A program made the position numbers and the translations under genes. Below the pieces are notes generated by a model that searched no databases, was not told the origin of the DNA, and saw nothing but the letters and a program-made list of their open reading frames with translations. Below, piece after piece: positions 49,650 through 62,583 of a DNA stretch of 64,000 bases (position 1 is its first letter; every line of letters starts with the position of its first letter). This DNA is from Candidatus Woesearchaeota archaeon. Its GTDB lineage: Archaea; Nanobdellota; Nanobdellia; Woesearchaeales; GW2011-AR4. The stretch lies in assembly GCA_016181305.1 (NCBI GenBank), contig JACOZN010000005.1:1-64000 (forward strand), written 5' to 3'.

Positions 49650-49656
49650 TCATTTT

Positions 49657-50237
49657 ATGAAAATAACCTCTTTAGAAGCTGCAGTTAAAAGTGGAATAAG
49701 CAAAAATCTCATATTCAAAAAAATTGCAGGATTAGAAAGAGAATTCTTTCCGAATTACCCGTATAATATAAATGGCATTAAAAAATCCCATAAATTAAGC
49801 AATGGGTGCACATTGATTGCATTTGACAAAGGCAATGTTATTGGTTACCTAATACCGCTATTCTTTAAAAGCAAGGATTATCTTCAGATATTAACAATTG
49901 CAGTTGATAAAAAGCATCATAAAAAAGGCTATGGAACTGAATTGATTAAAAAATGTGAGCGGATTGCACGTTCTTTAAAATTGAAAAGTGTGATATTGAG
50001 GGCAGATGTTTCGTATCCGATATTAAAAACATTAAAAAATTAAAATATCGCCCTATGCAAACTATGGACATTAATAATTTTACAAAAGAAGGGATATTCA
50101 GCCCTAAAGACGATATTAAAAAAGAGATTTTTAAATCAAAAATATCTGCTTTATTTCCAAAAGCATATATTATAACCAAGGACATAGGCAAGAAGAGCCA
50201 TTATTCCTTTATTCCAATGATTAAAAATATAAAATAA
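49657..50237 (+). pseudogene. GNAT acetyltransferase-like gene split at an A6 tract (50034-50039)
   Basis: IAVDKKHHKKGYGTEL motif A; adding one A fuses 49657-50043 with 50055-50237 (LKKLKYRPMQ). Confidence 0.6.
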
Positions 50238-50313
50238 TATGCCCAAAAATTATGCGTAAGAACGAAGGCTAAGTTTTCGGTTTAAAGTGAGGCGAAAATT
50301 AGAAACGGAGCTT

Positions 50314-50565
50314 TTAGTGCGAAGAAGGATAGTAAAACTGTTCATCTCCATAAAGAAAACCTTTAGTTCTAGCTTGAATTAAACCTCTCTGTTCTGCTTC
50401 TGTAATAGCATCTCTTGCATCTTTTAAACCTAAAGGATTTTTGCTATCATGTTTTAATCTGGTTTGTTTTGTAAGTTCGAAAAGGTTAAATTCACCAGGT
50501 TTTTCATTTACTAAACCAACAACATATCCTAAATTCCTTTCCAAAGGACTAACTGTTTCGCTCAT
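50314..50565 (-). CDS. Small hypothetical protein (winged-helix-like)
   Basis: 83-aa ATG ORF, AT-rich. Confidence 0.55.
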   Translation of the reverse strand: MSETVSPLERNLGYVVGLVNEKPGEFNLFELTKQTRLKHDSKNPLGLKDARDAITEAEQRGLIQARTKGFLYGDEQFYYPSSH

Positions 50566-50652
50566 ATCAATTGTTATTACTGAATAGTTTATAAAACTTT
50601 CGTTTTTGCCACACTTTTCAACCCTTTAGTTTCTCGAAGATAACCTTTAGGA

Positions 50653-50766
50653 AAAAATTCCAACAACTTGGCGAGACGAGGCGGGGGTTGTCCCTTACGG
50701 GGTGCCGAGTAGGGCAAAATCGCAGAGATTTTGACCGTCGAAGCCATAGTTGTTGTTGGAATTTTT
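50653..50766. repeat. 114-bp attC-like palindromic element with perfect 15-bp terminal inverted repeats
   Basis: AAAAATTCCAACAAC ... GTTGTTGGAATTTTT, inner TGGC..GACG/CGTC..GCCA arms. Confidence 0.7.
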
Positions 50767-50820
50767 GTTTTAATTCTACAAACCAAAACCTTTATATACT
50801 AGGTATACTTTAGGTATACC

Positions 50821-51039
50821 ATGAGGGCAATAACAACAATAAAGCTCCAGAAAAGCACGAAATCGGAATTAAACCATCTCAAGCTCAAGTCTGAAAGCTA
50901 TAATTCTGCGATAAAAAGGCTGATTTCTGATGCAAGGAATTCAAACTTAAAGGCAGAGCTTATTGGGGCTTACAAGTGCATGGGCAAAAAAGATTTAGAG
51001 TTCCTTGAAGAGTGGGAGCCTGCATCCAATGAAGTATAA
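50821..51039 (+). CDS. Putative antitoxin (RHH-like)
   Basis: TTIKL....K..L..LK...ESY...I.RLI pattern; overlaps the toxin start. Confidence 0.75.
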   Translation: MRAITTIKLQKSTKSELNHLKLKSESYNSAIKRLISDARNSNLKAELIGAYKCMGKKDLEFLEEWEPASNEV

Positions 51040-51395
51040 TGGCTGAGGTAAAAAGAGGCGACATCTGGCTGGTTAATCTGGACCCAACCATAGGGCATGA
51101 AATCAGGAAATCAAGGCCTGCTGTCATAATCCAAAATGATTTGGGAAACAAATACAGCCCCATAACCATTATAGCGCCGATTACTTCACAAAACATAGAA
51201 AAAACCTATCCCATAGAGGTTGTTTTGGACAGAAAAAACTCTGGCTTGGAAAAGGTTTCAAAGGTCCTTCTCAACCAAATAAGAGCCATAGACAAAAGAA
51301 GGCTGATAAGAAAACTGGGCAGGGTTGATTACGAAACGATGGCAAAGGTAGAAAATTCGATAAAGATTAGTTTAGGGCTTGTAAAAACGGAGTGA
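51039..51395 (+). CDS. mazF: MazF/PemK-family endoribonuclease toxin
   Basis: KRGDIWLVNLDP.IGHEI.K.RPAVIIQND, IAPITS, NQIRAIDK.RL. Confidence 0.93.
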   Translation: MAEVKRGDIWLVNLDPTIGHEIRKSRPAVIIQNDLGNKYSPITIIAPITSQNIEKTYPIEVVLDRKNSGLEKVSKVLLNQIRAIDKRRLIRKLGRVDYETMAKVENSIKISLGLVKTE

Positions 51396-51445
51396 TAATT
51401 TTTAAACCGCAAATCATCGAAAATTAAAAATGTGAATTTCCATAA

Positions 51446-52216
51446 TTAAAGCCATTGCCACAAATCTCCAAGCACAAGGAAGTTGCCAATTTCTTTTGTT
51501 TGGGGCAAATGCCTCTGAGCTTTTTCTAAATGACGTTTAGAACTTTCTTGAATTCTTTTTAAATCAAATCGTTTATCATCAAGCATTTGTTGAACTTCTT
51601 CTGTTGTATACTCATGCTCTCTTATGTTAGACCACTCAGGTTTATAATATTCCGTCGGAGATACTCCCTGCGAACCAGCACTTAGAATCACTCTTGCTTT
51701 TAACGAGTCTCCGTTTAAAAATTTTATAAATCTTCCTGGAGTTTCCCTATCTATTGGGTCTATCCCTACTGCCAAATAGTCTATTCTTACCGCCAAAGGA
51801 TTGTCATTAGGAGGTAATTTATATATAAAAAATCTGTCTATTGTTCTTTCATCCCTGTACTCATAGCCTTCTCTATGTTCTATATGTATACCACGCTTAT
51901 CATATTCTCTTGCTCCTTCAAAACCGAATGCGTAACTACTAAAACAAGAATGTAAATCATCTAATAATTCATTACTGAAAGGGAACGGACCATACTCTGT
52001 CGGTTTTAGAATAAGCGGCTCTTTTGTGGTAGCTTCTCTGACATATTGTACACAACCAATGACACCTTGAAAATTTGGCTCATTAACTCTAGAAACAACA
52101 GTAAATTCAGGATTGAATGGAGGAACTATGAGCCCTTCTGTAATTGAATTCTTGGAATTATCTCCACCTTTTAATCTCCCTTCTTGTTGAAGTCGTGTTA
52201 ATAATGTTAGTGTCAT
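51446..52216 (-). CDS. Hypothetical protein (AT-rich)
   Basis: 256-aa ORF with no recognised motif. Confidence 0.65.
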   Translation of the reverse strand: MTLTLLTRLQQEGRLKGGDNSKNSITEGLIVPPFNPEFTVVSRVNEPNFQGVIGCVQYVREATTKEPLILKPTEYGPFPFSNELLDDLHSCFSSYAFGFEGAREYDKRGIHIEHREGYEYRDERTIDRFFIYKLPPNDNPLAVRIDYLAVGIDPIDRETPGRFIKFLNGDSLKARVILSAGSQGVSPTEYYKPEWSNIREHEYTTEEVQQMLDDKRFDLKRIQESSKRHLEKAQRHLPQTKEIGNFLVLGDLWQWL

Positions 52217-52357
52217 TTTGAATTAACCTTTAATACAAGTACGGAAATTAGTTATTTATTTAAATCTTTTGTTTTGTTACTACTAATCGATTATTATCAA
52301 ACAAAACCGCAAATTATAAATATACCAAACAACATAAATCTTAAAAAGAGTGATATA

Positions 52358-52705
52358 ATGGCAAAAAAAAGAGGCAAGACATTTGGTAAAGCTAGTTCTA
52401 AGAAGCCACTGCAGTCTGTGGAGGTTATAATAAGAAAGAAGATTCTCGGGGAGGCTCCTGTGGAGCACCATTTTGTTGTAGCAGACGGAAGGAAAATAAA
52501 AAATATAATTGAACTTGCAGACGCGCTTGAGACAATGAGCGAGGAGATATTCAGGCACCATGCCAACGAGTTCAAGAACGACTTCAGCTCATGGGTTAAG
52601 GATGTCTTTTATGACCACAGCCTTGCAGAGGACATTTCAAGGGCCAAGAACAGGCTGGAAACCCAGATTGCAGTTTTAAGAAGGCTGGTAAAGGAGCTGA
52701 TGTAA
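52358..52705 (+). CDS. DUF5752-like protein
   Basis: F....G..I.N..EL..AL..M....F.HH....KNDFSSWV.DV motif. Confidence 0.75.
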   Translation: MAKKRGKTFGKASSKKPLQSVEVIIRKKILGEAPVEHHFVVADGRKIKNIIELADALETMSEEIFRHHANEFKNDFSSWVKDVFYDHSLAEDISRAKNRLETQIAVLRRLVKELM

Positions 52706-52706
52706 C

Positions 52707-53006
52707 ATGGTGACAAAAGACGAGGCAAAAAGATACCTGTGCGATGCAGCCCCTGAGCAGTGCTTTTGGATTAATAACGGCCCCATATTGAAAAACATGG
52801 AAGAGCTGGCAAATGCGCTGCCGGACATGGCAGAAGACACCTTCAGGCACCATGTAAACGATGAAAAGAACGACTTCAGCAGCTGGGTCAGGGATGTCAT
52901 AGGCGACCAGAAGCTCGCAAACGAGCTGGCAAGCGCGAAAAACAGGGACTCTGCCCTGAAAAAAATAAGGAACAGGCTTAATTCTTTGAGGAAGAAGGCT
53001 GGCTAG
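52707..53006 (+). CDS. DUF5752-like protein (paralog)
   Basis: Same motif: FWINNGP.LKN.EEL...F.HHVN..KNDFSSWVRDV. Confidence 0.75.
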   Translation: MVTKDEAKRYLCDAAPEQCFWINNGPILKNMEELANALPDMAEDTFRHHVNDEKNDFSSWVRDVIGDQKLANELASAKNRDSALKKIRNRLNSLRKKAG

Positions 53007-53320: not shown

Positions 53321-53581
53321 ATGTCGAGTGAAATGGAAGAATACACAAAATACGAGCAGGCACGGATTATCGGAGCAAGGGCGCTGCAGATTTCTATGGG
53401 AGCTCCATTTTTGGTTAAGCTGGATGATGAAGACCTGAAGAAAATGGGCTATAACCCGATTGAGGTGGCAAAGCTTGAGTTCAGGCAGGGGCTTATACCT
53501 ATAAGGGTCAAGAGGCCGCTGCCGGGCACGATAAAAAGGGATTCCTCTGCAAAGCCGTTTGACCAGACAAAGCTGGAGTAA
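53321..53581 (+). CDS. rpoK: RNA polymerase subunit K (Rpo6)
   Basis: [21 protein letters not shown]. Confidence 0.96.
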
Positions 53582-54326: not shown

Positions 54327-54917
54327 TTAACTCAATTCCGTGATGATTTTTTCGACTTGCCTTTCCAGATGCCCCAAGCCCTTGTTGTTGTCAACCACAA
54401 AATCAGCATATTTCAGCTTTTCATTTAGCGGCATCTGCGCCTTTAAAATCTTTTCTATTTGCAGCCTTGTGAATCTTTTGTTTCTTTTCAGGATGTTTTC
54501 CCTGCTGCATTTTACAACAATGACTTTGTCAACCAGATTTTTTGCCTTTGTCTCAAGCAATAAGGGCGCATCAATAATTATTTTTGCATTTTTGCCGCAT
54601 TTTTTCTGGACTTGCTTAATCTGATTTTTAATTTCTTCAATAATCGGGGAATGCATGATTGAATCCAGTTTTTTTAATTTATTTTTATCTCTGAATACTG
54701 CATTGCCTAATTTTTGCCTGGCAATATTCTTGTTTTTATCTAAAATGCGGCTTCCAAAATTCCTAACAAGCTCTTTTTGGATTCTTTTGTCTTTTTTCAG
54801 TATTTCATGCCCTATCCCGTCGGCATCAATCCTGCTGTAATGATGCCTGCTGAAAAGTTCTGCAACTGCAGTTTTCCCCGAGCCGACCGAGCCTGTGACG
54901 CCTATGATCATATTCAC
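54327..54917 (-). CDS. coaE: Dephospho-CoA kinase, bacterial-type
   Basis: IGVTGSVGSGKT, IDAD, DAPLLLE, Q.P..EK...ADFVVDN. Confidence 0.95.
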   Translation of the reverse strand: MNMIIGVTGSVGSGKTAVAELFSRHHYSRIDADGIGHEILKKDKRIQKELVRNFGSRILDKNKNIARQKLGNAVFRDKNKLKKLDSIMHSPIIEEIKNQIKQVQKKCGKNAKIIIDAPLLLETKAKNLVDKVIVVKCSRENILKRNKRFTRLQIEKILKAQMPLNEKLKYADFVVDNNKGLGHLERQVEKIITELS

Positions 54918-55696
54918 AACAAGTTTGCAAGCTTCTTTATATCCTTATTGGCAACGTGAGTGTAAATCTGGGTAGTCTGCAGGCTTGAATGCCCGAGCAG
55001 TTTCTGGATGTGCCTTATGTCCGCGCCTGCCTCCAAAAGATGGGTGGCAAAGCTGTGCCTCAAGGTGTGGGGTGTTATTTTCTTTCCGATTCCAGCCCTT
55101 TCTGCTGCATTTTTAACAATCATCTGGATTGTCCTTTTATCATACTTTTTCCCCAGGTTTGACATGAAGGCAAAGCTTTCTTTTTTAATGCCCAGGTATT
55201 CAATGAAATCCTTTAGCTTGCCATGCAGGAAGATTATTCGTTCCTTCCCGCCTTTTGCTATCTTAAGGTGAATAACATCCCTTTGAAAGTCAATGTCTTC
55301 CCATTTCAGGCTCACTATCTCGTTAAGCCTTATGCCCGTGTAATATAGAAACATCAGGACTAACCTATGCTTTAGGTTTAATGTTGCCTGAAGCATCTTG
55401 CTTATTTCCTCTTTGCTCAGGACTACTGGAAGCTTGCCTTTGTTTTTTGCAAGAGGTATTGTCTCATCGAACTTCTGCCTCAAAACATTCTCGTAAAAGA
55501 ATTTCAGCGCGAAATACACGCTCCTTATGCTGGAGCGGCTTTTATCGGCATACCCAAGCAAAAACTCCCTCGGCTGAAGCCCAGACTCAATGAACTTCCT
55601 TATTATCAATGCATAAGCCTTTTCAGTCTGCCTTGAGTGCTTCCTCAGCCTCAGCTCTTCAGACAGCTTATTAAGGTAAACATGCGCATCTTCCAT
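54914..55696 (-). CDS. Tyrosine recombinase (Xer-type, no IntI-specific insertion)
   Basis: Catalytic R (TGIRLNE), K (AKGGKER), HxxR (HTLRH), H (LLGH), Y (TQIYTH); N-terminal SAM-like domain. Confidence 0.95.
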   Translation of the reverse strand: MEDAHVYLNKLSEELRLRKHSRQTEKAYALIIRKFIESGLQPREFLLGYADKSRSSIRSVYFALKFFYENVLRQKFDETIPLAKNKGKLPVVLSKEEISKMLQATLNLKHRLVLMFLYYTGIRLNEIVSLKWEDIDFQRDVIHLKIAKGGKERIIFLHGKLKDFIEYLGIKKESFAFMSNLGKKYDKRTIQMIVKNAAERAGIGKKITPHTLRHSFATHLLEAGADIRHIQKLLGHSSLQTTQIYTHVANKDIKKLANLL

Positions 55697-55742
55697 AAAG
55701 CTAATGAATAACTATAAGTATATAAAAACTTCGCTTTAACAT

Positions 55743-55793
55743 ATCTAACACCTATTAAACAGCAATTAAAACTGCGTTTAATAGTTGTTAAAA
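55743..55793. repeat. attC-like imperfect hairpin upstream of the recombinase
   Basis: ATCTAAC-ac-CTATTAAAC[A]GCA...TGC-GTTTAATAG-tt-GTTAAAA; one extrahelical base. Confidence 0.6.
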
Positions 55794-55797
55794 TCAA

Positions 55798-55839
55798 TTA
55801 TTACTCGGGGCACACGACGAAACGGAGGGGGCACACTCA
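55798..55839 (+). repeat. Left bipartite end repeat (TTATTACTCGGGGCACACG + GGGGCACACTCA)
   Basis: Inverted copy at 59094-59172. Confidence 0.8.
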
Positions 55840-55921
55840 CTACGTTGATACGAACTTTATACATTTATTAGGAGAAATTGAGGCGAAAAGTTTATATATC
55901 TGTTGTATATACACTGGCTAT

Positions 55922-56182
55922 ATGACAACCGAAATGATTACTCTAAAGCTTGATGATATGTTCTTGAAAGAGATAGACTCTATTGTGGAGAAACAGGGTT
56001 ATCATAACAGGACAGAATTTATCAGAAATGCACTTAGAGAGAAAGTAGAAGATACAAAAATAAAGGATGCAATGATACAAATTGCCCACTTGAAGGGCGC
56101 TTCCAAGAAGAAAACAAGTGATGCAGACCTTGAGAAGATTAGGGAAAAAGTTTTCAATGAATTAGACAAAAAAGTTAGATAA
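55922..56182 (+). CDS. Ribbon-helix-helix (CopG/NikR-like) protein, putative antitoxin
   Basis: MITLKLDD.FL.EID..V...GY.NRTEFIR.ALREK. Confidence 0.88.
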   Translation: MTTEMITLKLDDMFLKEIDSIVEKQGYHNRTEFIRNALREKVEDTKIKDAMIQIAHLKGASKKKTSDADLEKIREKVFNELDKKVR

Positions 56183-56591
56183 GATCTTCTGGTTTGTGAT
56201 GTTTTGATACATCTTCCAGCTTTCTGAAATGTCTGTCTCTTGTTACAAGGATTAAGTCGTTGTCTCTTGCTATTATAACGTGCAAAGCATCTCCAGCAGG
56301 AACATCTCTTTCCTTTGCAATTTTTTTGGCTTCTTCTCGCTGTTTTTCTGTAGCAATAATCTTTTTTATAATTTTTTCAAAAGGCTTAAACATTCCATTG
56401 ATTTCTGCAACTGAATAAAGTGTCTCAAGTTCTTTTATAAGAAAATCGGTAAGCACAATAGCACTTTCTTTTGCTTTTATTTTGACAAGCAGCTTAAAGG
56501 CGTAATCGCCTAGTGGCTCATTGTTATAGCCTTTCCTATCTTCATAAAGATCAACCCAAATTGAAGTGTCTATTATGTATTCTTCTGCCAT
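56175..56591 (-). CDS. PIN-domain (VapC-like) nuclease
   Basis: YIIDTSIW, E, GDALH, LVTRDRHF motifs; ATG at 56591. Confidence 0.9.
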   Translation of the reverse strand: MAEEYIIDTSIWVDLYEDRKGYNNEPLGDYAFKLLVKIKAKESAIVLTDFLIKELETLYSVAEINGMFKPFEKIIKKIIATEKQREEAKKIAKERDVPAGDALHVIIARDNDLILVTRDRHFRKLEDVSKHHKPEDLI

Positions 56592-56712
56592 AGTAAGCAA
56601 GTGATTGTATGGGTATTTATAATTTACTAGTTCTTTGACGTGAAAAACCATAGCAAAGTTTTTATATGTACATTTAGGTTTTCGTATATGGGGTTGGTAA
56701 ATAAAGCTCAAA

Positions 56713-59055
56713 ATGGTTAAAGGCTATTGTAAGTATTGTTTGTCTGGAAAAAAGGAAGAAGTAGAACAATGTCCCCATTGTCAAAAACATTTTTGTAGTG
56801 AGCATATTACTCCAATAGAGCCTGGTTCTTATCGTCCAGAAAAATCTCGCATATTTATTAATCAAATAAGACTAGGTCATGAAAATACTCATCCATGTCC
56901 TGATTATGTTGATTACTTAGAAGAACAAAAAACAATTCACGGCAAAAAATATGGAGAAGCATTAGACAAATTATTAGGTAGTACTCCAAAGTATAAACTT
57001 CCTTTATCGGAAAGACAAGAAATAAGGGATACAAGGCATAATATTGCTAAAGAAAATGAAGAATTTAATAAAAGTGTTAATGCTAAGCTTGAGGTGGATA
57101 TTCAAAGAAGAAAAGAGGATAAAATTAAACGTAAAGAACTAGAAAAAGAGAAACATAGACAAGAGATTGAAGAAAAGGAGAGACTTAGTAGGGAGATAGA
57201 GGAAAAACAAAAAAAGCATTTGAAAAAACAAGAAAAAGATGAGCCTTACCTTTACAGGTATATTTCGCCAGAAGAGAGAAAATCCAATCAACCACCAAAA
57301 GTACCTGAAAAATATAAAAAAGAGCATGTAGGGACAGCACACCATCATCATGAAACACCCAAGGAAGAAACTGCAAAAGAAAAATATTATAAAAAAGAAG
57401 AATCTGGCATTTTTTCAAAGTTAAAAATTAATAGAAAGAATTTTTATGTGGTTGGCACAATAATTTTATTATTACTTGTCGGATTATTCTATGGGACCTC
57501 AGCCAAAACTATAATTCAAGAAATCAAGAATGTATCCAATACAAAAACTATAAGCTCTTACGAAAATATCTCAAATAAAATCTCATTTTCTAACTATCTT
57601 AATGATATTTATGCATTTGATAAACAAGAAGTTACATTAAATGGTTTTCTTGAAAGAAGCGTTGAAGGAGATGGCAATGCTGGAGTTCATGTATTTTCAA
57701 TTGTAGATGACTACAACAATAGAGTTGTATTGGAATGGTCTTATAATAACTTAAAAAAATATTTACCAGATTTGGGAAAAACAAAAGAATTGTATTCTGT
57801 TCAAGGAATTTTTAAGAGAGAATACAAGACTTTAAAATTAAATGTCGAAAACATAAATATCTATAAAAGAGAACCAGCTAAACAAGTAGAAGTAAACAAT
57901 ATAGTAAGCTATACTGAGCAAATTACTATAAACAGAACAAGTCCAAAGTATCCTTTGGTTAGAAATTTGGTTTTTAAACTCATAGGTAAAGAAATTATTT
58001 GCGAGGATGGTACAAAAATTGATTCTTGTTCTAATGAAAAACCACTATACTGCTCTATTAATGGACTAAAAGAAGAACCAGCAAAGTGTGGATGTCCTTC
58101 AGGCAAAAGATTGTACCAAAATCAATGCATAAATGAAGTCAAATGCTCAGATGGAACTTATGAGCCAGAATGTTCAAAAAATAAACCAAAACAATGCGTG
58201 AATGGGAAACTTGTTGACAATCCAGAAGTATGTAACTGTCCAGAAAACTATAAAGTAAAAGATAAAAAATGTGTTTATATCAGATGTTCTGATGGAACTA
58301 TCGAGCCAGATTGTTCTGCAAAAATGAAGATGCAATGTATGGAAGGCAATTTTATTTATAATCCAAATAAATGTGGTTGCCCAGATGGTTATGTCAAAAG
58401 AGGAAATAATTGTGTAAAAACTTGCAGCGATGGAACTGCGTATGACGAATGCTCTGATGATATGCCTCTTTATTGTGATAATGATGCATTAATAAACAAA
58501 GCGTCAATTTGTGGTTGCCCTTCTGGTTCTGGCTCAAAATATAAACAATCAGGAGAACTATGTTTAGATTTGTCAAATCCAGATATAGAGTATATAGAAG
58601 AAAAAGTTCATGAACTAATAAACCTACAAAGGCAAACAAATGGACTGTCAAAATTATCCTATGACACAAAACTTGTACAAATTGCAAGAGCCCATAGCCA
58701 AGATATGGCTACAAATGACTTCTTTTCCCACGACAATTTACGTGGGGAAGACCCAACCGATAGAGCAAGTAAAGTAGGCTATAATTGCAGAAAAGATTAT
58801 GGTTCATATTATACAAACGGTATTGCAGAAAATATTCACCAAGGTTGGACATATGGAACAACATGGTATACAAATGGTGTTGAATCTAGTAAGGAGTGGT
58901 TAATGCCTGACGAAATATCAGAAAGTGCTGTTACTGGATGGATGAACAGCCCAGGTCATCGCAAAAATATACTAACAAACACGTATGATAAAGAGGGAAT
59001 AGGCGTAGCAGTAGCATCAAATGGTGCTGTTTACATTACGCAAGATTTTTGTTAA
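56713..59055 (+). CDS. Membrane protein with AN1-like Zn finger, Cys-rich repeats and C-terminal CAP/SCP domain
   Basis: CxxC..CxxC..FCxxH..H.C; TM; four C(S/E)DGT repeats; HSQDM, AENI, WMNSPGHRKNIL. Confidence 0.88.
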   Translation: MVKGYCKYCLSGKKEEVEQCPHCQKHFCSEHITPIEPGSYRPEKSRIFINQIRLGHENTHPCPDYVDYLEEQKTIHGKKYGEALDKLLGSTPKYKLPLSERQEIRDTRHNIAKENEEFNKSVNAKLEVDIQRRKEDKIKRKELEKEKHRQEIEEKERLSREIEEKQKKHLKKQEKDEPYLYRYISPEERKSNQPPKVPEKYKKEHVGTAHHHHETPKEETAKEKYYKKEESGIFSKLKINRKNFYVVGTIILLLLVGLFYGTSAKTIIQEIKNVSNTKTISSYENISNKISFSNYLNDIYAFDKQEVTLNGFLERSVEGDGNAGVHVFSIVDDYNNRVVLEWSYNNLKKYLPDLGKTKELYSVQGIFKREYKTLKLNVENINIYKREPAKQVEVNNIVSYTEQITINRTSPKYPLVRNLVFKLIGKEIICEDGTKIDSCSNEKPLYCSINGLKEEPAKCGCPSGKRLYQNQCINEVKCSDGTYEPECSKNKPKQCVNGKLVDNPEVCNCPENYKVKDKKCVYIRCSDGTIEPDCSAKMKMQCMEGNFIYNPNKCGCPDGYVKRGNNCVKTCSDGTAYDECSDDMPLYCDNDALINKASICGCPSGSGSKYKQSGELCLDLSNPDIEYIEEKVHELINLQRQTNGLSKLSYDTKLVQIARAHSQDMATNDFFSHDNLRGEDPTDRASKVGYNCRKDYGSYYTNGIAENIHQGWTYGTTWYTNGVESSKEWLMPDEISESAVTGWMNSPGHRKNILTNTYDKEGIGVAVASNGAVYITQDFC

Positions 59056-59093
59056 TATTAAAATTTATCACCCGATTACTACTACTTTTAACT

Positions 59094-59172
59094 TGAGTGT
59101 GCCCCTTAATTCTCATCCTTGACGTATCGCTGTCGCTCATTTGATTGGACGAACGAGTGTCCCGAGTAATAA
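59094..59172 (-). repeat. Right bipartite end repeat, inverted relative to 55798-55839
   Basis: TGAGTGTGCCCC (exact 12-bp reverse complement) and CGAGTGTCCCGAGTAATAA (17/19). Confidence 0.8.
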
Positions 59173-59214
59173 CTTTTCGGGCGAAATTTTACCCCACTTC
59201 GTAGGGTAAAAGAG

Positions 59215-59387
59215 ATTAACAAGAATTAGGCGGTTCGCAGGGTCGCTTACGCTAAAACGCCAAGCGTTTTCCCCTGCTCTCCCAAATTTTTGCCAGCTCT
59301 GAAAAATTCTCCATCTCTGAAGTTTGTGGGTTGCCTCAAACTTCGAGGGGAATTTTTCGAGGGCAAAAACTTCGCCTAATAAGTTAG
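59215..59387. repeat. ~173-bp branched palindromic element with AAC...GTT-type ends
   Basis: TAAC..ATTAGGCG / CGCCTAAT..GTTA outer arms; inner GCAGGG/CCCTGC, AAAACGC/GCGTTTT, TTTTGCC/GGCAAAA, GAAGTTTG/CAAACTTC. Confidence 0.7.
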
Positions 59388-59434
59388 TTTCAATAATTTT
59401 TAGTGGCTAAACGACTGATAGGGGGACATTCCGC

Positions 59435-60496
59435 TCATTCCACAATATTCCCGGTGTGGCTTTCAACTGCAGGCAATTGCGGAGGCACGACTTTTCCATA
59501 GAACACACGCACCGTTTTATCATTTATCTTTAAGACAGAGGGGTCATATACATTATCTTCCTGAAAAACAGGCATTGGCTCGCCGAAATCAAGCCCGTCA
59601 GATGATTCCACATAATAGATTCCTTTGGGAACTTTAGCAAATCCTTCATCTATAGAGGCTGCAAAAAGCACGTATTTATCGGCGATTCTGGCCAATGCTG
59701 GATCAACGAGATTTGGAACCCTGATTCCTGCTTCTTTTGCAAAATTAAGCCCATCAGAGGATACAGCTGATCCGATCCCGTGCTGCATTCCTGATGCCGT
59801 CACATAGTATATCCTTACTCGGCCGTCCGGAAGCATTATGGCATCTGGAACAGAAGCCCAGCCATTGTCGCCGTTAGTCTCTGAATCTATCCTAAGCCCC
59901 TCTTTTTCGAAAGTCAAGCCATCTGAAGATACTGCAGAATAAATTTTGTGTATAGACTGTCCGGGCCCGGGGTTCTGGCTATTCGCGCCCTTGTAGTACA
60001 TCCTAATTTTTCCGCCCGGAAGATTTACGATAGTCGGATCGCAGACGATGAATTCAAATCCTGCTCCTGGGGAGATTCTTATGCCCTGCTCTTTTGCAAA
60101 AGTCAGTCCGTCATTGGAAATCGCAGACAATATCCCTTTGATGTTGCAGTAGTACAGGCGAACTTTTCCATCCTTCAAGCCATGCACAAAAGGAACAGAC
60201 CCGTCTGCAATTCTTGAGCCGCCGTCTTTCTCCCAGGAAAAAGACAATGCTTCTGCAGCCGGTTCTGTCGGCATATTGTTAATTTCAGGGATTAAATCCT
60301 GGGGTGTTTCAGAAACGGATTCCGGTTCAGCCTCGGAGTTTGACGGGAAACCTTGCTGCAAACCTCCGGCAACCCCGGCTTCCCCATCCCGCTCAGCTTC
60401 CTCCTGCGCTTCTTTGAAATCGGCAGACTCCTGAGCAGCGCAGCCAGAAATAATAATAGCAAAAACCAGCATAAACAACACAGCCTCTTTTTTCAT
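59435..60496 (-). CDS. Lipoprotein-like protein with repeated SxDGLxF blades (beta-propeller, glycosidase-like)
   Basis: Signal ending ISGC; four S(N/S)DGL(T/N/D)F repeats, each followed by DP/PD..RxYY-type segments. Confidence 0.75.
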   Translation of the reverse strand: MKKEAVLFMLVFAIIISGCAAQESADFKEAQEEAERDGEAGVAGGLQQGFPSNSEAEPESVSETPQDLIPEINNMPTEPAAEALSFSWEKDGGSRIADGSVPFVHGLKDGKVRLYYCNIKGILSAISNDGLTFAKEQGIRISPGAGFEFIVCDPTIVNLPGGKIRMYYKGANSQNPGPGQSIHKIYSAVSSDGLTFEKEGLRIDSETNGDNGWASVPDAIMLPDGRVRIYYVTASGMQHGIGSAVSSDGLNFAKEAGIRVPNLVDPALARIADKYVLFAASIDEGFAKVPKGIYYVESSDGLDFGEPMPVFQEDNVYDPSVLKINDKTVRVFYGKVVPPQLPAVESHTGNIVE

Positions 60497-60570
60497 TATT
60501 CTGGCACCCCATTATGTTATATTTAAATCTTTTCAAAATCTTTATAAACCCCAATACTTATACCGCATCT

Positions 60571-61863: not shown

Positions 61864-61908
61864 GTTTTTTTGTTTTAATTTTTATTTAAATGCAGCTTTA
61901 ATCTGCAT

Positions 61909-62583
61909 CTATGAACTTAGGCTGTTTACAAATGCTGAAACTTCACTTTCATTTTGAAGAACAACGACTTCCAAGTTTGGAAACTCCTCATTTTTAGGAA
62001 TTTCCTGGGTTCTATGGATAAGATGTATAACCCTTTCATCGACTATTTCTCTTTTCTGTGTGTTCCTGCTGTGTCTTTTCAAAGAAACGTCCAAGCCAAG
62101 GTTCAGATAAACCAGCATTTTTTTAGTTTCATCCAAACCTAAATTAAATCCCATTATTTCCGCCATTTCTGATAGGCTCTCAAATAACATTCTTCTCCTT
62201 ACCCTATCGTGCAGGAGTGATTCTATAACAGGAATTTCACCACCTATATGCGATAATTCCGATACTATATAAGAATTTACAGCTTGTTGAAAAAGCTGAT
62301 TCCAGAATGTCTTGCCATCCTTACCGACTGCTGTAATTACGGCGTACTTTAGTTTATTTAAATCCCTTTTGCCAGCCGACGGAGTGCTAATTCCAAATTG
62401 CTGCAGTATAGCCGGGTAGAACTTCTGAAGAGACTCAAAAAATTTCTCTGGCTCTTCTTCAAGTTTGTCATGTATTGAATCTATTCCAAGAATCTTATAT
62501 TTAGGGTTTCTTTGTTTTATTGCATCGCATAAGTAACTCTTTCCTGAATAGGGTATACCTCCAACAAGCATTAAATTTTCCAT
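61909..62583 (-). CDS. P-loop nucleotide-kinase-like protein
   Basis: LVGGIPYSGKS Walker A; LDVSLKRHSR lid-like segment. Confidence 0.75.
   Translation of the reverse strand: MENLMLVGGIPYSGKSYLCDAIKQRNPKYKILGIDSIHDKLEEEPEKFFESLQKFYPAILQQFGISTPSAGKRDLNKLKYAVITAVGKDGKTFWNQLFQQAVNSYIVSELSHIGGEIPVIESLLHDRVRRRMLFESLSEMAEIMGFNLGLDETKKMLVYLNLGLDVSLKRHSRNTQKREIVDERVIHLIHRTQEIPKNEEFPNLEVVVLQNESEVSAFVNSLSS

Follow-up and report, generated by a model that had tools for sequence, protein, structure and literature searches.

What does a Xer-family tyrosine recombinase do beside a segment bounded by inverted repeats in a Woesearchaeota (DPANN) archaeon: does it flip the segment, or does it exchange it? 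We examined this in a window of 64,000 nucleotides (contig JACOZN010000005.1, positions 1 to 64,000). The locus is probably an integron-like gene-cassette platform run by the recombinase, with swappable cassettes in an integron layout lacking the segment that defines integron integrases. Cassettes would enter and leave at a 12-bp core, G-TTA-N4-5-CAAT. An attI-like site (H0) would adjoin the recombinase gene, which points away from it, and every cassette would carry at its 3' end its own folded, attC-like site (P) of 110-210 nt, with TAAC/GTTA as its R box and an L box that is specific to the cassette and held by compensatory changes. The 5' end of each cassette would form an outer stem with the DNA immediately preceding P, a stem that closes only in the excised circle. 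Recombination of H0 with P, or of P with P, would insert, excise or reorder cassettes, and arrays would consequently differ between close relatives. The array of the window comprises one three-gene cassette (RHH, PIN and a membrane protein with a CAP domain) followed by a terminal cassette that encodes a putative lipoprotein. In the literature, we found no paper describing a Xer-type integron-like arrangement in DPANN.

The recombinase gene (54914..55696, minus strand; 260 aa, denoted group A) matched PF00589 at 3e-44, and the catalytic residues R, K, HxxR, H and Y were legible in its translation. Its best NCBIfam model was XerA_Arch (NF040815; 210.6 bits, cut-off 220), and the integron integrase model TIGR02249 aligned to it only as two stretches. 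The XerA structures 4a8e and 5hxy were collinear with the protein. Its residues 163-187 aligned opposite residues 175-244 of IntI4, and the IntI insertion is therefore absent. This agrees with an earlier note on this DNA, which had claimed that the enzyme lacks the insertion and that the system differs from canonical integrons. Orthologues were found across DPANN phyla at 59-94% identity. On the minus strand 5' of the gene, a TATA promoter-like stretch and, after it, the conserved box AAAAACTTCGCTTTAAC (55714..55743) were kept in nearly all of the 80 related loci, anchored on the recombinase, that formed our comparative set. The stretch may act as promoter or operator, and the ACTTCG motif also occurs in the L' arm of attC-like sites. 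The genome has two Xer-type paralogues, that of the window below the XerA equivalog cut-off and the other above it. The adjacent recombinase may be the catalyst of cassette recombination, but P-like elements lie near both paralogues.

Next to the recombinase gene, which is transcribed away from the cassettes, lies H0 (55746..55798, plus strand), a hairpin plus the core G|TTAAAATCAAT. The hairpin (55746-55790) reads TAACA-CCTATTAAAC-15 nt-GTTTAATAG-T-TGTTA, with a folding energy of -10.1 kcal/mol (z = -4.3). The motif TCGCTTAATAG(T/G)TGTT-N6-AAT is kept 5' of the recombinase across DPANN, and the sequences diverge beyond it. Similarity to relatives stops at the H0 core, and contigs of G015, G004 and a Logan assembly end at the equivalents of window positions 55785, 55790 and 55779, respectively. 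The hairpin is read as a conserved attI-like site adjoining the group A recombinase family across DPANN archaea. The earlier note had reported this hairpin as attC-like; the hairpin is present, and we assign it as attI-like instead. The note had also considered that the enzyme might group with XerA and act only on a distant dif. The XerA grouping holds by sequence, and the site adjoining the gene speaks against action at a distance only.

Two cores, ..TAGTTGTT|A and ..TAAGTT|A, set the edges of cassette 1 (55790..59385, plus strand; 3596 bp), which consists of a 5' module, the RHH, PIN and CAP genes, a 3' module and an attC-like site. In the 5' module (55798..55839, plus strand), ACGACGAAACGG lies between an outer repeat (55798-55816) and an inner repeat (55828-55839), both of which contain GGGGCAC. 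The complementary 3' module (59094..59172, plus strand) contains the inner repeat at 59094-59105 and the outer repeat at 59154-59172. The outer repeats pair at 17 of 19 positions, the inner 12-mer GGGGCACACTCA has an exact complement, and GGG(G/A)CAC is present in two copies at either end of the segment, all as previously noted save for the implied position of the inner repeat, which was one base off. No further copy of the repeat sequence was found in the 1.07-Mb genome. The G+C content was 27-37% inside the repeat-bounded segment and 42-49% in the flanks. The same start type also follows H0 in the unrelated genome L074, with a variant after H0 in L031, and metagenome contig L150 has the 3' module arranged as in cassette 1.

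The segment 55798-59172 with its terminal repeats had been taken as the mobile unit, a delimitation that the cores do not bear out, placing the unit at 55790-59385. Because the cassette runs from the core at 55790 to the core at 59385, the large palindrome behind the segment is read as the cassette's own attC-like site and not as a separate neighbor. In a circular cassette, the inverted repeats would form a stem closing around this site, and would not be the ends of an inversion or a transposon; the modelled circular junction had a folding energy of -82.9 kcal/mol (z = -10.9).

Pfam matches confirmed the previously proposed cargo. The RHH (CopG-like) gene (55922..56182, plus strand; PF01402 at 2e-07) encodes a protein that is also encoded, identically, on 7 short contigs of other metagenomes. 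The PIN-domain nuclease gene (56175..56711, minus strand; PF01850 at 4e-09, residues 45-166) likely starts at an internal ATG. These two genes are convergent with overlapping 3' ends, and thus do not form a standard toxin-antitoxin operon. The third gene (56713..59055, plus strand) encodes a 780-aa membrane protein with, in order, an N-terminal Cys-rich finger, a charged linker, a transmembrane helix, Cys-rich repeats and a C-terminal CAP/SCP domain (PF00188 at 5e-18). Its homologue on L150 encodes a protein with 72% identity, and at the DNA level the two genes share 94% identity over 1325 bases (57193-58517).

Site P (59214..59394, plus strand) was recognized by its fold, covariation and a profile match at E = 1.6e-45. 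Its 5' side comprises R'' (GATTAAC), L'' (TTAGGCG), variable inner hairpins and the invariant apex TGTGGGTTGCCTCA (59325-59338), and its 3' side comprises L' (CGCCTAA) and R' (G|TTAGTTTCAAT). The region 59173-59400 folded at -48.6 kcal/mol (z = -7.3), and the AAC/GTT-ended palindrome reported earlier is thus both present and strongly folded. The stretch before P (59173..59211, plus strand) contains the conserved box CTTTTCGGGCG as well as a small hairpin, TTTTACCC-CACTTCGTA-GGGTAAAA; in many genomes the loop ACTTCGTA of this hairpin is conserved and its stem varies yet stays paired. Compensatory changes keep 15 of the 25 pairs of the P consensus structure. All P sites share the R box TAAC/GTTA unchanged, their L box and apex stem covary, and the L'-R' spacing ranges from 3 to 9 nt. 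The exact apex was found in 41 of 301 genomes of the order, compared with 2 matches for a reversed control. These features suggest that the palindrome is an attC-like folded site. It may act as folded single-stranded or cruciform DNA, a mechanism proposed by analogy only, since the recombinase lacks the insertion that bacterial integrases need for folded attC. P-like sites had about 10 A-C and 5 G-T mismatches, too slight an excess to identify the folding strand. A lone P-like site was located far from any recombinase (C21:23327-23531).

The terminal cassette (about 59386..60510, plus strand) consists of a 5' stub, AGTTTCAAT-AATTTTTAGTGGCTAAACGACTGATAGGGGGACATT, and a gene for a putative lipoprotein of 353 aa (59435-60496, minus strand). 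No P site was found at its end, and the window holds one P site in all. The same stub begins cassettes in L037, L128 and G015, where G015 has an unrelated 439-aa gene in place of the 353-aa gene. The conserved flank picks up again at 60531.

Across the 80 loci, 46 P-like sites were found, and all 46 were upstream of the recombinase in one common orientation, with no P-like match in 617 kb downstream compared with the 46 matches in 189 kb upstream. The recombinase reads away from the variable region, as intI does and as the earlier note had stated. That note had proposed a gene-capture or inversion platform; gene capture is supported by the arrays and their turnover, and the uniform site orientation argues against inversion. 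Genes and sites alternate (ORF-P-ORF-P) in related loci, with seven P sites in a closed Pacearchaeota genome and five, five and three in others, and site orientation relative to the recombinase holds even where the cassette gene is on the opposite strand. Contigs end less than 300 bp from the gene upstream in 31 of 80 loci and downstream in none (0/80), and G015 contigs break exactly at the core. For 24 cassettes, the complementarity between the two ends had a median of 13 for cognate and 8 for non-cognate pairs, and 16 of the 24 exceeded the non-cognate 95th percentile. The "terminal inverted repeats" thus appear to be a general cassette feature, in which the 5' end is predicted to pair with the DNA just upstream of the cassette's own site. 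In unrelated genomes, the same types of cassette start are found after H0 in some cases and after a P site in others. Cassettes apparently carry their own TATA-like promoters, without dependence on a platform promoter.

Close relatives carry entirely different cassettes between common flanks, the cargo turnover that the earlier note had suggested looking for. G011 has a restriction-modification cassette between the H0 and P flank found in the window. In G015, with 94% identity in the recombinase, there are four different cassettes. On L264 the RHH-PIN module (~93% nucleotide identity) follows another attC-like site, and on L261 and L266 it follows a different gene. On L150, the CAP-gene homologue with a 3' module of the cassette 1 type is in a G+C-rich foreign context. 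The paralogous XerA-type gene on contig C12 has a dif-like site, which is unoccupied in G001; this genome and G016 have an insert of two cassettes there. Excision and the direction and frequency of recombination events are inferences.

The platform resembles integrons, sedentary chromosomal ones included, in its tyrosine recombinase transcribed away from an adjacent insertion site, in its cassettes, which mostly have a single gene and are each terminated by an imperfect palindrome (..TAAC at the 5' base and GTTA.. at the 3' base), in a second cassette-specific paired box with an unpaired spacer between the boxes, and in the cassette boundary at G|TT. Accessory cargo (restriction-modification, nucleases, toxin-like and membrane proteins) with rapid turnover between relatives is also common to both. 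However, the recombinase here has no IntI-specific insertion and its best-scoring model is that of XerA, the two ends of each cassette form an extra outer stem, and these cassettes apparently have their own promoters. The R''-L'' spacer is about 1-2 nt, and 3-9 nt separate the L' arm from GTTA. Archaeal integrons and CALINs have been described, including Woesearchaeales and Pacearchaeales genomes with 2-4 attC and no IntI (Ghaly et al. 2022, PMC9668308). In Data S9 of that study, the five visible archaeal attC sequences measure 58-91 nt, whereas the P sites span 110-210 nt, contain two or three inner hairpins and share an invariant apex loop.

The platform was also compared with archaeal XerA/dif, XerS/difSL, Vibrio IMEXs and Acinetobacter plasmid pdif modules. 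It shares with them a Xer-family enzyme and a core legible as two short arms around a 6-7-bp center, of which one arm remains on the chromosome and the other moves with the insert. As CTX phage shows, a folded single strand can serve Xer enzymes as a substrate; difSL adjoins xerS in streptococci, and CTX and TLC exploit XerCD in Vibrio. The cassettes could accordingly be IMEX-like islands, integrative elements without their own recombinase that exploit a housekeeping chromosome-dimer resolvase whose dif, H0, adjoins its gene. We consider this improbable but worth weighing, and it overlaps in mechanism with the integron-like reading. The XerA-like enzyme sequence fits it, as does the conservation of the family across DPANN phyla, expected of a housekeeping gene. 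H0 is legible as an 11-7-11 core, TTTAATAGTTG-TTAAAAT-CAATTATTACT, with arms complementary at 8 of 11 positions, and the dif-like site of the paralogue that passes XerA_Arch is empty in G001 and occupied in G000 and G016, with junctions resembling attL and attR. However, the closed genome and this genome each have two Xer-type genes, and the gene of the window scores below the XerA cut-off while the other passes it. In the closed genome (711 kb), the genes lie at 324 and 507 kb, neither opposite cdc6 (526 kb), and no G-C skew extremum was found at either gene in this genome, so neither indicator points to a replication-terminus position. The inserts are ordered cassettes of one to three genes with covarying folded sites in one orientation, neither phage-like nor plasmid-like, and pdif modules differ in being flanked by oppositely oriented sites. 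H0 adjoins the recombinase gene, whereas the Thermococcales dif does not adjoin xerA (Cortez et al. 2010, PMC2958812).

Three further explanations start from the repeats and palindromes. Flipping of 55798-59172 by the recombinase to switch surface-protein expression is very unlikely. A small tyrosine recombinase beside DNA bounded by 19-bp and 12-bp inverted repeats, with one gene for a surface protein, does recall FimB/FimE, shufflons and Bacteroides invertons, but here the repeats are cassette-specific, present whatever the cargo, and part of a larger folded site. The single orientation of all 46 sites argues against a switch, module homologues on other contigs were in no case seen inverted relative to their end modules, and we saw neither promoter-in/promoter-out logic nor inverted variants, the cargo being exchanged and not flipped. 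Equally doubtful is a non-autonomous, MITE-like transposon served by a transposase elsewhere. Bipartite terminal repeats, lower G+C and no transposase inside would suit it, but the segment ends show no target-site duplication, the repeat is unique in the genome, the left end directly adjoins the conserved core of recombination, the right repeat is internal to the conserved 3' module and away from the point where homology to other copies ends, and the same geometry recurs in cassettes with unrelated repeats. There is also little likelihood that the palindromes are simply structured RNA (3' UTR stabilizers, terminators or ncRNA) in an ordinary genomic island. The stems covary around invariant loops, as in RNA families, and each site follows the 3' end of a gene, in most cases on the coding strand. 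However, the sites had no Rfam match even at E up to 1, their orientation follows the recombinase regardless of cassette gene strand, and homology between genomes ends at their GTTA-N5-AAT end. P sites may have an RNA role alongside recombination.

The genome carrying the window is 1.07 Mb in size and 78% complete, and its nearest public relatives are labelled Candidatus Woesearchaeota (DPANN). All of the elements described in the earlier note were present in the sequence: a tyrosine recombinase of 260 aa (54914-55696, minus strand; PF00589 at 3e-44), a hairpin beside it (55746-55790, z = -4.3; the attI-like site H0), and a segment with bipartite inverted repeats at its ends, followed on its 3' side by a large palindrome (59214-59394, z = -7.3; the attC-like site P). 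The outer 19-bp repeat (55798-55816 and 59154-59172) matches at 17/19 positions and the inner 12-mer (55828-55839 and 59094-59105) exactly. The cargo of the segment is a set of three genes, for an RHH protein, for a PIN nuclease, and for a membrane protein of 780 aa that has a CAP domain, and G+C content was 27-37% inside the segment versus 42-49% in the flanks. No tRNA was detected at the site, nor any Rfam family, whether hits had to reach the gathering threshold or were allowed up to E = 1. The RHH and PIN genes (55922-56711) converge and share 8 bp where their 3' ends meet, unlike the usual antitoxin-then-toxin operon, and this arrangement is kept on short contigs of other metagenomes (L261-L265, L267).

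A scan with one genome per species yielded 80 loci encoding relatives of the recombinase (59-94% identity), in genomes labelled Woese-, Pace-, Aenigm-, and Iainarchaeota, among others. Nearly all of these loci had a promoter-like box (..TATATAAAAACTTCGCTTT..) upstream of the recombinase gene and, after it, the motif CTATTAAGCGA-N9-TCGCTTAATAG(T/G)TGTT-N6-AAT, beyond which the sequences diverged. The H0 motif of the window reads ..GTTTAATAGTTGTT|AAAATCAAT at 55776-55798, and BLAST similarity to the relatives ends at 55785-55802. Contigs ended at most 300 bp upstream of the gene in 31/80 loci, versus at most 300 bp downstream in 0/80, and the median flank was 837 bp upstream versus 9978 bp downstream. 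A Logan contig with an identical recombinase protein ends at the equivalent of window position 55779. These sequence comparisons point to H0 as the putative insertion site.

The 3' end of P, CGCCTAA-TAA-GTTAGTTTCAAT, repeats the core of the recombinase-adjacent site (G-TTA-N4-5-CAAT). An invariant 14-nt apex, TGTGGGTTGCCTCA, was found in 41/301 genomes of the order with one to three copies each, and the reversed control gave 2 hits. The 35 apex-bearing sites had one common layout, which from 5' to 3' comprises a ..(C/T)TAAC-A base, a 10-12-nt arm, inner hairpins with CCAAAT, the apex hairpin, AACTTCG with the complementary arm, 3-9 nt, and GTTA-N5-AAT at the 3' end. When 15 sites were aligned, the TAAC/GTTA pairs were invariant and the arm and apex-stem pairs varied compensatorily, with double changes in 15/25 predicted pairs. 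That site-specific arms stay complementary points to selection on intrastrand pairing, an argument that is also applied to integron attC sites. Mismatches in the sites comprised ~10 A-C versus 5 G-T, an asymmetry too small to decide the folding strand. P is predicted to be the cassette's own recombination site. As for carriage by viruses, the exact apex occurred in 103 IMG/VR stretches, which by a rough estimate is no more than chance, and the site profile matched 0/80 of the stretches fetched.

A profile built from 24 sites was searched over the 80 recombinase-anchored loci and found 46 sites, all of which (46/46) lay upstream of the recombinase and in the same orientation; no P-like site was found by this search in 617 kb downstream of the recombinase. 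Sites alternate with genes in these loci, reaching seven in a closed Pacearchaeota genome (L071), five each in loci L092 and L145 (the latter from genome G030), and three each in L109 and L148 (the latter from genome G040). At least one site was present in 23/43 loci having at least 700 bp of upstream sequence, and sites were also co-oriented in 10/10 multi-site loci anchored by the apex. Cargo elsewhere included an Eco57I-type methylase with a BsuBI/PstI endonuclease, an Mrr-like nuclease, UDG, HD, and kinase-like proteins, and small membrane proteins. Some cassettes hold two to five genes or opposite-strand genes, and TATA-like boxes precede cassette genes.

Cargo turnover, which the earlier note had proposed to look for, was evident in two relatives. 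In the genome G011, the recombinase, the coaE/coaD flank, and H0 are as in the window; H0 is followed by a DUF6338 protein and then by a restriction-modification pair; the end repeats are different ones, and similarity to the window returns at 59217-59270. The closest relative, G015, has a recombinase 94% identical to that of the window, on a contig that ends in H0. A second G015 contig begins exactly at a core (GTTATATTCAAT|) and continues through an array of four cassettes with three sites, none in common with the window, and similarity resumes at window position 60531. The 353-aa gene of the window was considered as the conserved flank and rejected, as an unrelated 439-aa gene stands at its place in G015; this replacement moved the distal edge of the array to ~60510. 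The variable region accordingly extends from 55790 to ~60510 and consists of cassette 1 (55790-59385; RHH, PIN, and CAP genes) and a site-less terminal cassette, with boundaries at the cores, replacing the unit of 55798-59172 delimited in the earlier note. A further small presence/absence difference was seen just past the array: a 224-aa ORF (61909-62583) is absent from the otherwise collinear G015 contig, in which the equivalents of window positions 61891 and 62637 are 8 bp apart (L258 6473 and 6481).

Parts of cassette 1 were also found in other contexts. An identical RHH protein occurs on seven short contigs of other metagenomes (~93% nucleotide identity), one of which begins at the core as in the window; on one, the gene comes after another small attC-like site (..TACAGTTAGTTTCAAT|ATGACTACGGGGCACAC), and on two it comes after a gene for a membrane protein, with a 5' module that differs. 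The CAP gene has a homologue at metagenomic locus L150, with 72% identity at the protein level and 94% at the nucleotide level over 1.3 kb; that copy has the same 3' module, next to a site collapsed to GAAC-A-GGAATTCC-GAT-GTTG and an unrelated, G+C-rich flank. An exact-match query for the 780-aa protein against other assemblies returned no record. Cassette starts of the same types come after H0 in certain genomes and after P sites in other genomes, differences at the junctions fall within the 12 bp G-TTA-N4-5-CAAT, and the spacer of the core goes with the cassette at some junctions and with the platform at others, a pattern that fits strand exchange at both edges of the central region.

The bipartite end repeats had suggested an invertible segment to the earlier note, which had also allowed for ends of a DDE-transposase family. 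A transposon or MITE reading was rejected: the end repeats are single-copy in the genome, no target duplication was found at 55797/59173, and there is no transposase inside. The single orientation of all sites in the 80 loci argues against an inversion switch, and homologous modules on other contigs likewise keep their orientation to the end modules. Other-cargo cassettes in G011, in genome G003, and on contig C12 of the window's genome are flanked by bipartite inverted repeats of their own, differing in sequence. For 24 cassettes, pairing was scored between the first 70 nt past the core and the stretch immediately preceding the site that belongs to the cassette. Cognate pairing had a median score of 13 versus 8 for non-cognate pairing and exceeded the non-cognate 95th percentile in 16/24 cassettes, often beginning at the first base past the core. 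This cassette-specific pairing indicates that the repeats are not the ends of a mobile segment, but flank the crossover point. In a circular cassette, the repeats would form an outer stem around the site and the small hairpin that precedes P (59187-59211, conserved loop ACTTCGTA); the modelled circular junction, with 59086-59385 joined to 55790-55851, gave -82.9 kcal/mol (z = -10.9), and the outer stem is a model structure. Many cassette starts (e.g., window 55800-55845, and loci L037 and L085) carry tandem ACGA(C/A)..A..GGGGG(A/C) motifs, e.g., ACGACGAAACGGAGGGGGCAC, and the matching cassette ends carry CCCC..TTAATTC. The recombinase or an accessory protein may bind at these tandem motifs.

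Another explanation is that the enzyme is simply the housekeeping XerA, acting on a distant dif. The solved structures closest to it in sequence are XerA of Pyrococcus (4a8e) and Thermoplasma (5hxy), followed by IntI4, and its alignment to XerA is collinear; the grouping with XerA contemplated in the earlier note stands to this extent. However, the enzyme narrowly missed the cut-off of the XerA equivalog model NF040815 (XerA_Arch; 210.6 bits versus 220) and has its own site next door. Contig C12 carries another Xer-type gene; it is 42% identical to the window's enzyme and passes the same model with 268.2 bits. Both paralogues are carried by the closed Pacearchaeota genome (711 kb), where their positions are 324 kb and 507 kb, with cdc6 at 526 kb, so that neither is opposite cdc6 (a weak test); a similarly weak test found no G-C skew extremum at either Xer gene on C12 or on the window's contig, C5. 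Given two paralogues, neither opposite cdc6 nor at a skew extremum, the window's enzyme is probably not the sole housekeeping resolvase. A dif-like ancestry of its site is plausible. The C12 gene has a dif-like site directly upstream, ACTTCGCCCAAT-CYGT-ATTAG.. / ACTTCGCCCAATCCGT|ATTAGGCGAAC (gene, site, and insert at C12 12860-15300; L029 3840-6300), which is empty in genome G001 (L140) and occupied in the window's genome and in G016 (L141). The insert is 1.5 kb long and contains a degenerate P apex in addition to a pair of small membrane-protein cassettes, both of which are flanked by inverted repeats of their own; the junctions of the insert resemble attL and attR.

Integrons are defined by IntI together with its extra domain, through which bases flipped out of a folded attC site are read. 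They are the closest model for the array. An attI-like site beside the recombinase and a G|TT core, both features of integrons, were found here, with H0 conserved and the divergence located at G-TTA-N4-5-CAAT. The IntI-specific domain around patch III was not: residues 163-187 of the window's recombinase (24 aa) stand opposite residues 175-244 of IntI4 (69 aa), so that the IntI-specific segment is missing, as the earlier note had claimed, and the match to TIGR02249 is in two stretches with 184 bits versus a cut-off of 265. The sites, putatively of attC type, show an R''-L''...L'-R' layout and compensatory changes; they are longer than integron attC and have other spacers and a conserved apex. 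In integrons, cassettes mostly hold a single gene without a promoter and are expressed from a platform promoter, Pc. The arrays described here are co-oriented, some of their cassettes are multi-gene or hold opposite-strand genes, and the TATA-like boxes may be promoters of the cassettes themselves. Xer-exploiting elements (IMEXs and pdif modules) are a second model, with a common enzyme family and hybrid-site logic; unlike the window's system, they are without an array of covarying folded sites.

Published archaeal integrons comprise 75 genomes with 539 attC sites and only six IntI, all with the IntI domain, and Woesearchaeales and Pacearchaeales genomes are listed with two to four attC sites and no IntI (PMC9668308). 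The five attC sequences seen in Data S9 of that study are canonical and 58-91 nt long, and a search of its supplement gave no hit to the apex motif (Ghaly et al. 2022; PMC9668308). We found no paper linking such arrays to Xer-type recombinases in DPANN, in keeping with the suggestion that the arrangement may be undescribed.

Taken together, the co-oriented arrays, covarying sites, and cargo turnover support the reading of the locus as an integron-like gene-capture platform. We infer the recombinase to be its catalyst; which form of DNA it acts on, and that it is active today, are likewise inferred. For the wider proposal, that DPANN carry a distinct and widespread gene-capture system of plain Xer-family recombinases without the IntI insertion, long folded sites with three-way junctions, and a G|TTA core, we put the chances at about even. 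If true, this Xer-based system would mean that the integron principle was invented independently, or else that a relative of the Xer-to-IntI transition is still living, making that principle broader than its textbook definition and offering a testable model for the origin of IntI from Xer. It would also explain the absence of IntI from most archaeal attC clusters in DPANN, could account for the integrase-less archaeal clusters of 2022, and would point to a main route of defence and surface gene exchange in these genome-reduced, host-dependent archaea. Since the site is short, conserved, and adjoins the candidate enzyme, it is directly testable in vitro or in E. coli.

Other site-like sequences were observed in the same genome. 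A third P-like site (C21 23327-23531, minus strand; E = 9e-12), complete with a preceding GTCTGCGGACGCAG box and a small ACTTTGTA hairpin, comes after a 498-aa gene in an island of 28-34% G+C, on a contig without a tyrosine recombinase; it is a solo cassette outside the arrays. In the window, ~3.5 kb past the 3' end of the recombinase gene and on the opposite side from the array, a low-G+C stretch contains a 114-bp palindrome (50653-50770; region 49650-52270) with perfect 15-bp ends, AAAAATTCCAACAAC...GTTGTTGGAATTTTT. In its 3' part, the sequence ATAGTTGTTGGAAT is similar to the H0 core. The palindrome has one copy in the genome and no match to the P profile, and it may represent a different class of cassette site. 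Beside it are two small overlapping genes (50821-51395), a putative MazEF-like pair. Two adjacent paralogous genes of 143 and 99 aa (52274-53006), with the C-terminal motif ..FRHH.N..KNDFSSWV.DV.., sit between the low-G+C stretch and a small gene (53321-53581) that, judged from its sequence, presumably encodes an rpoK-like RNA polymerase subunit.
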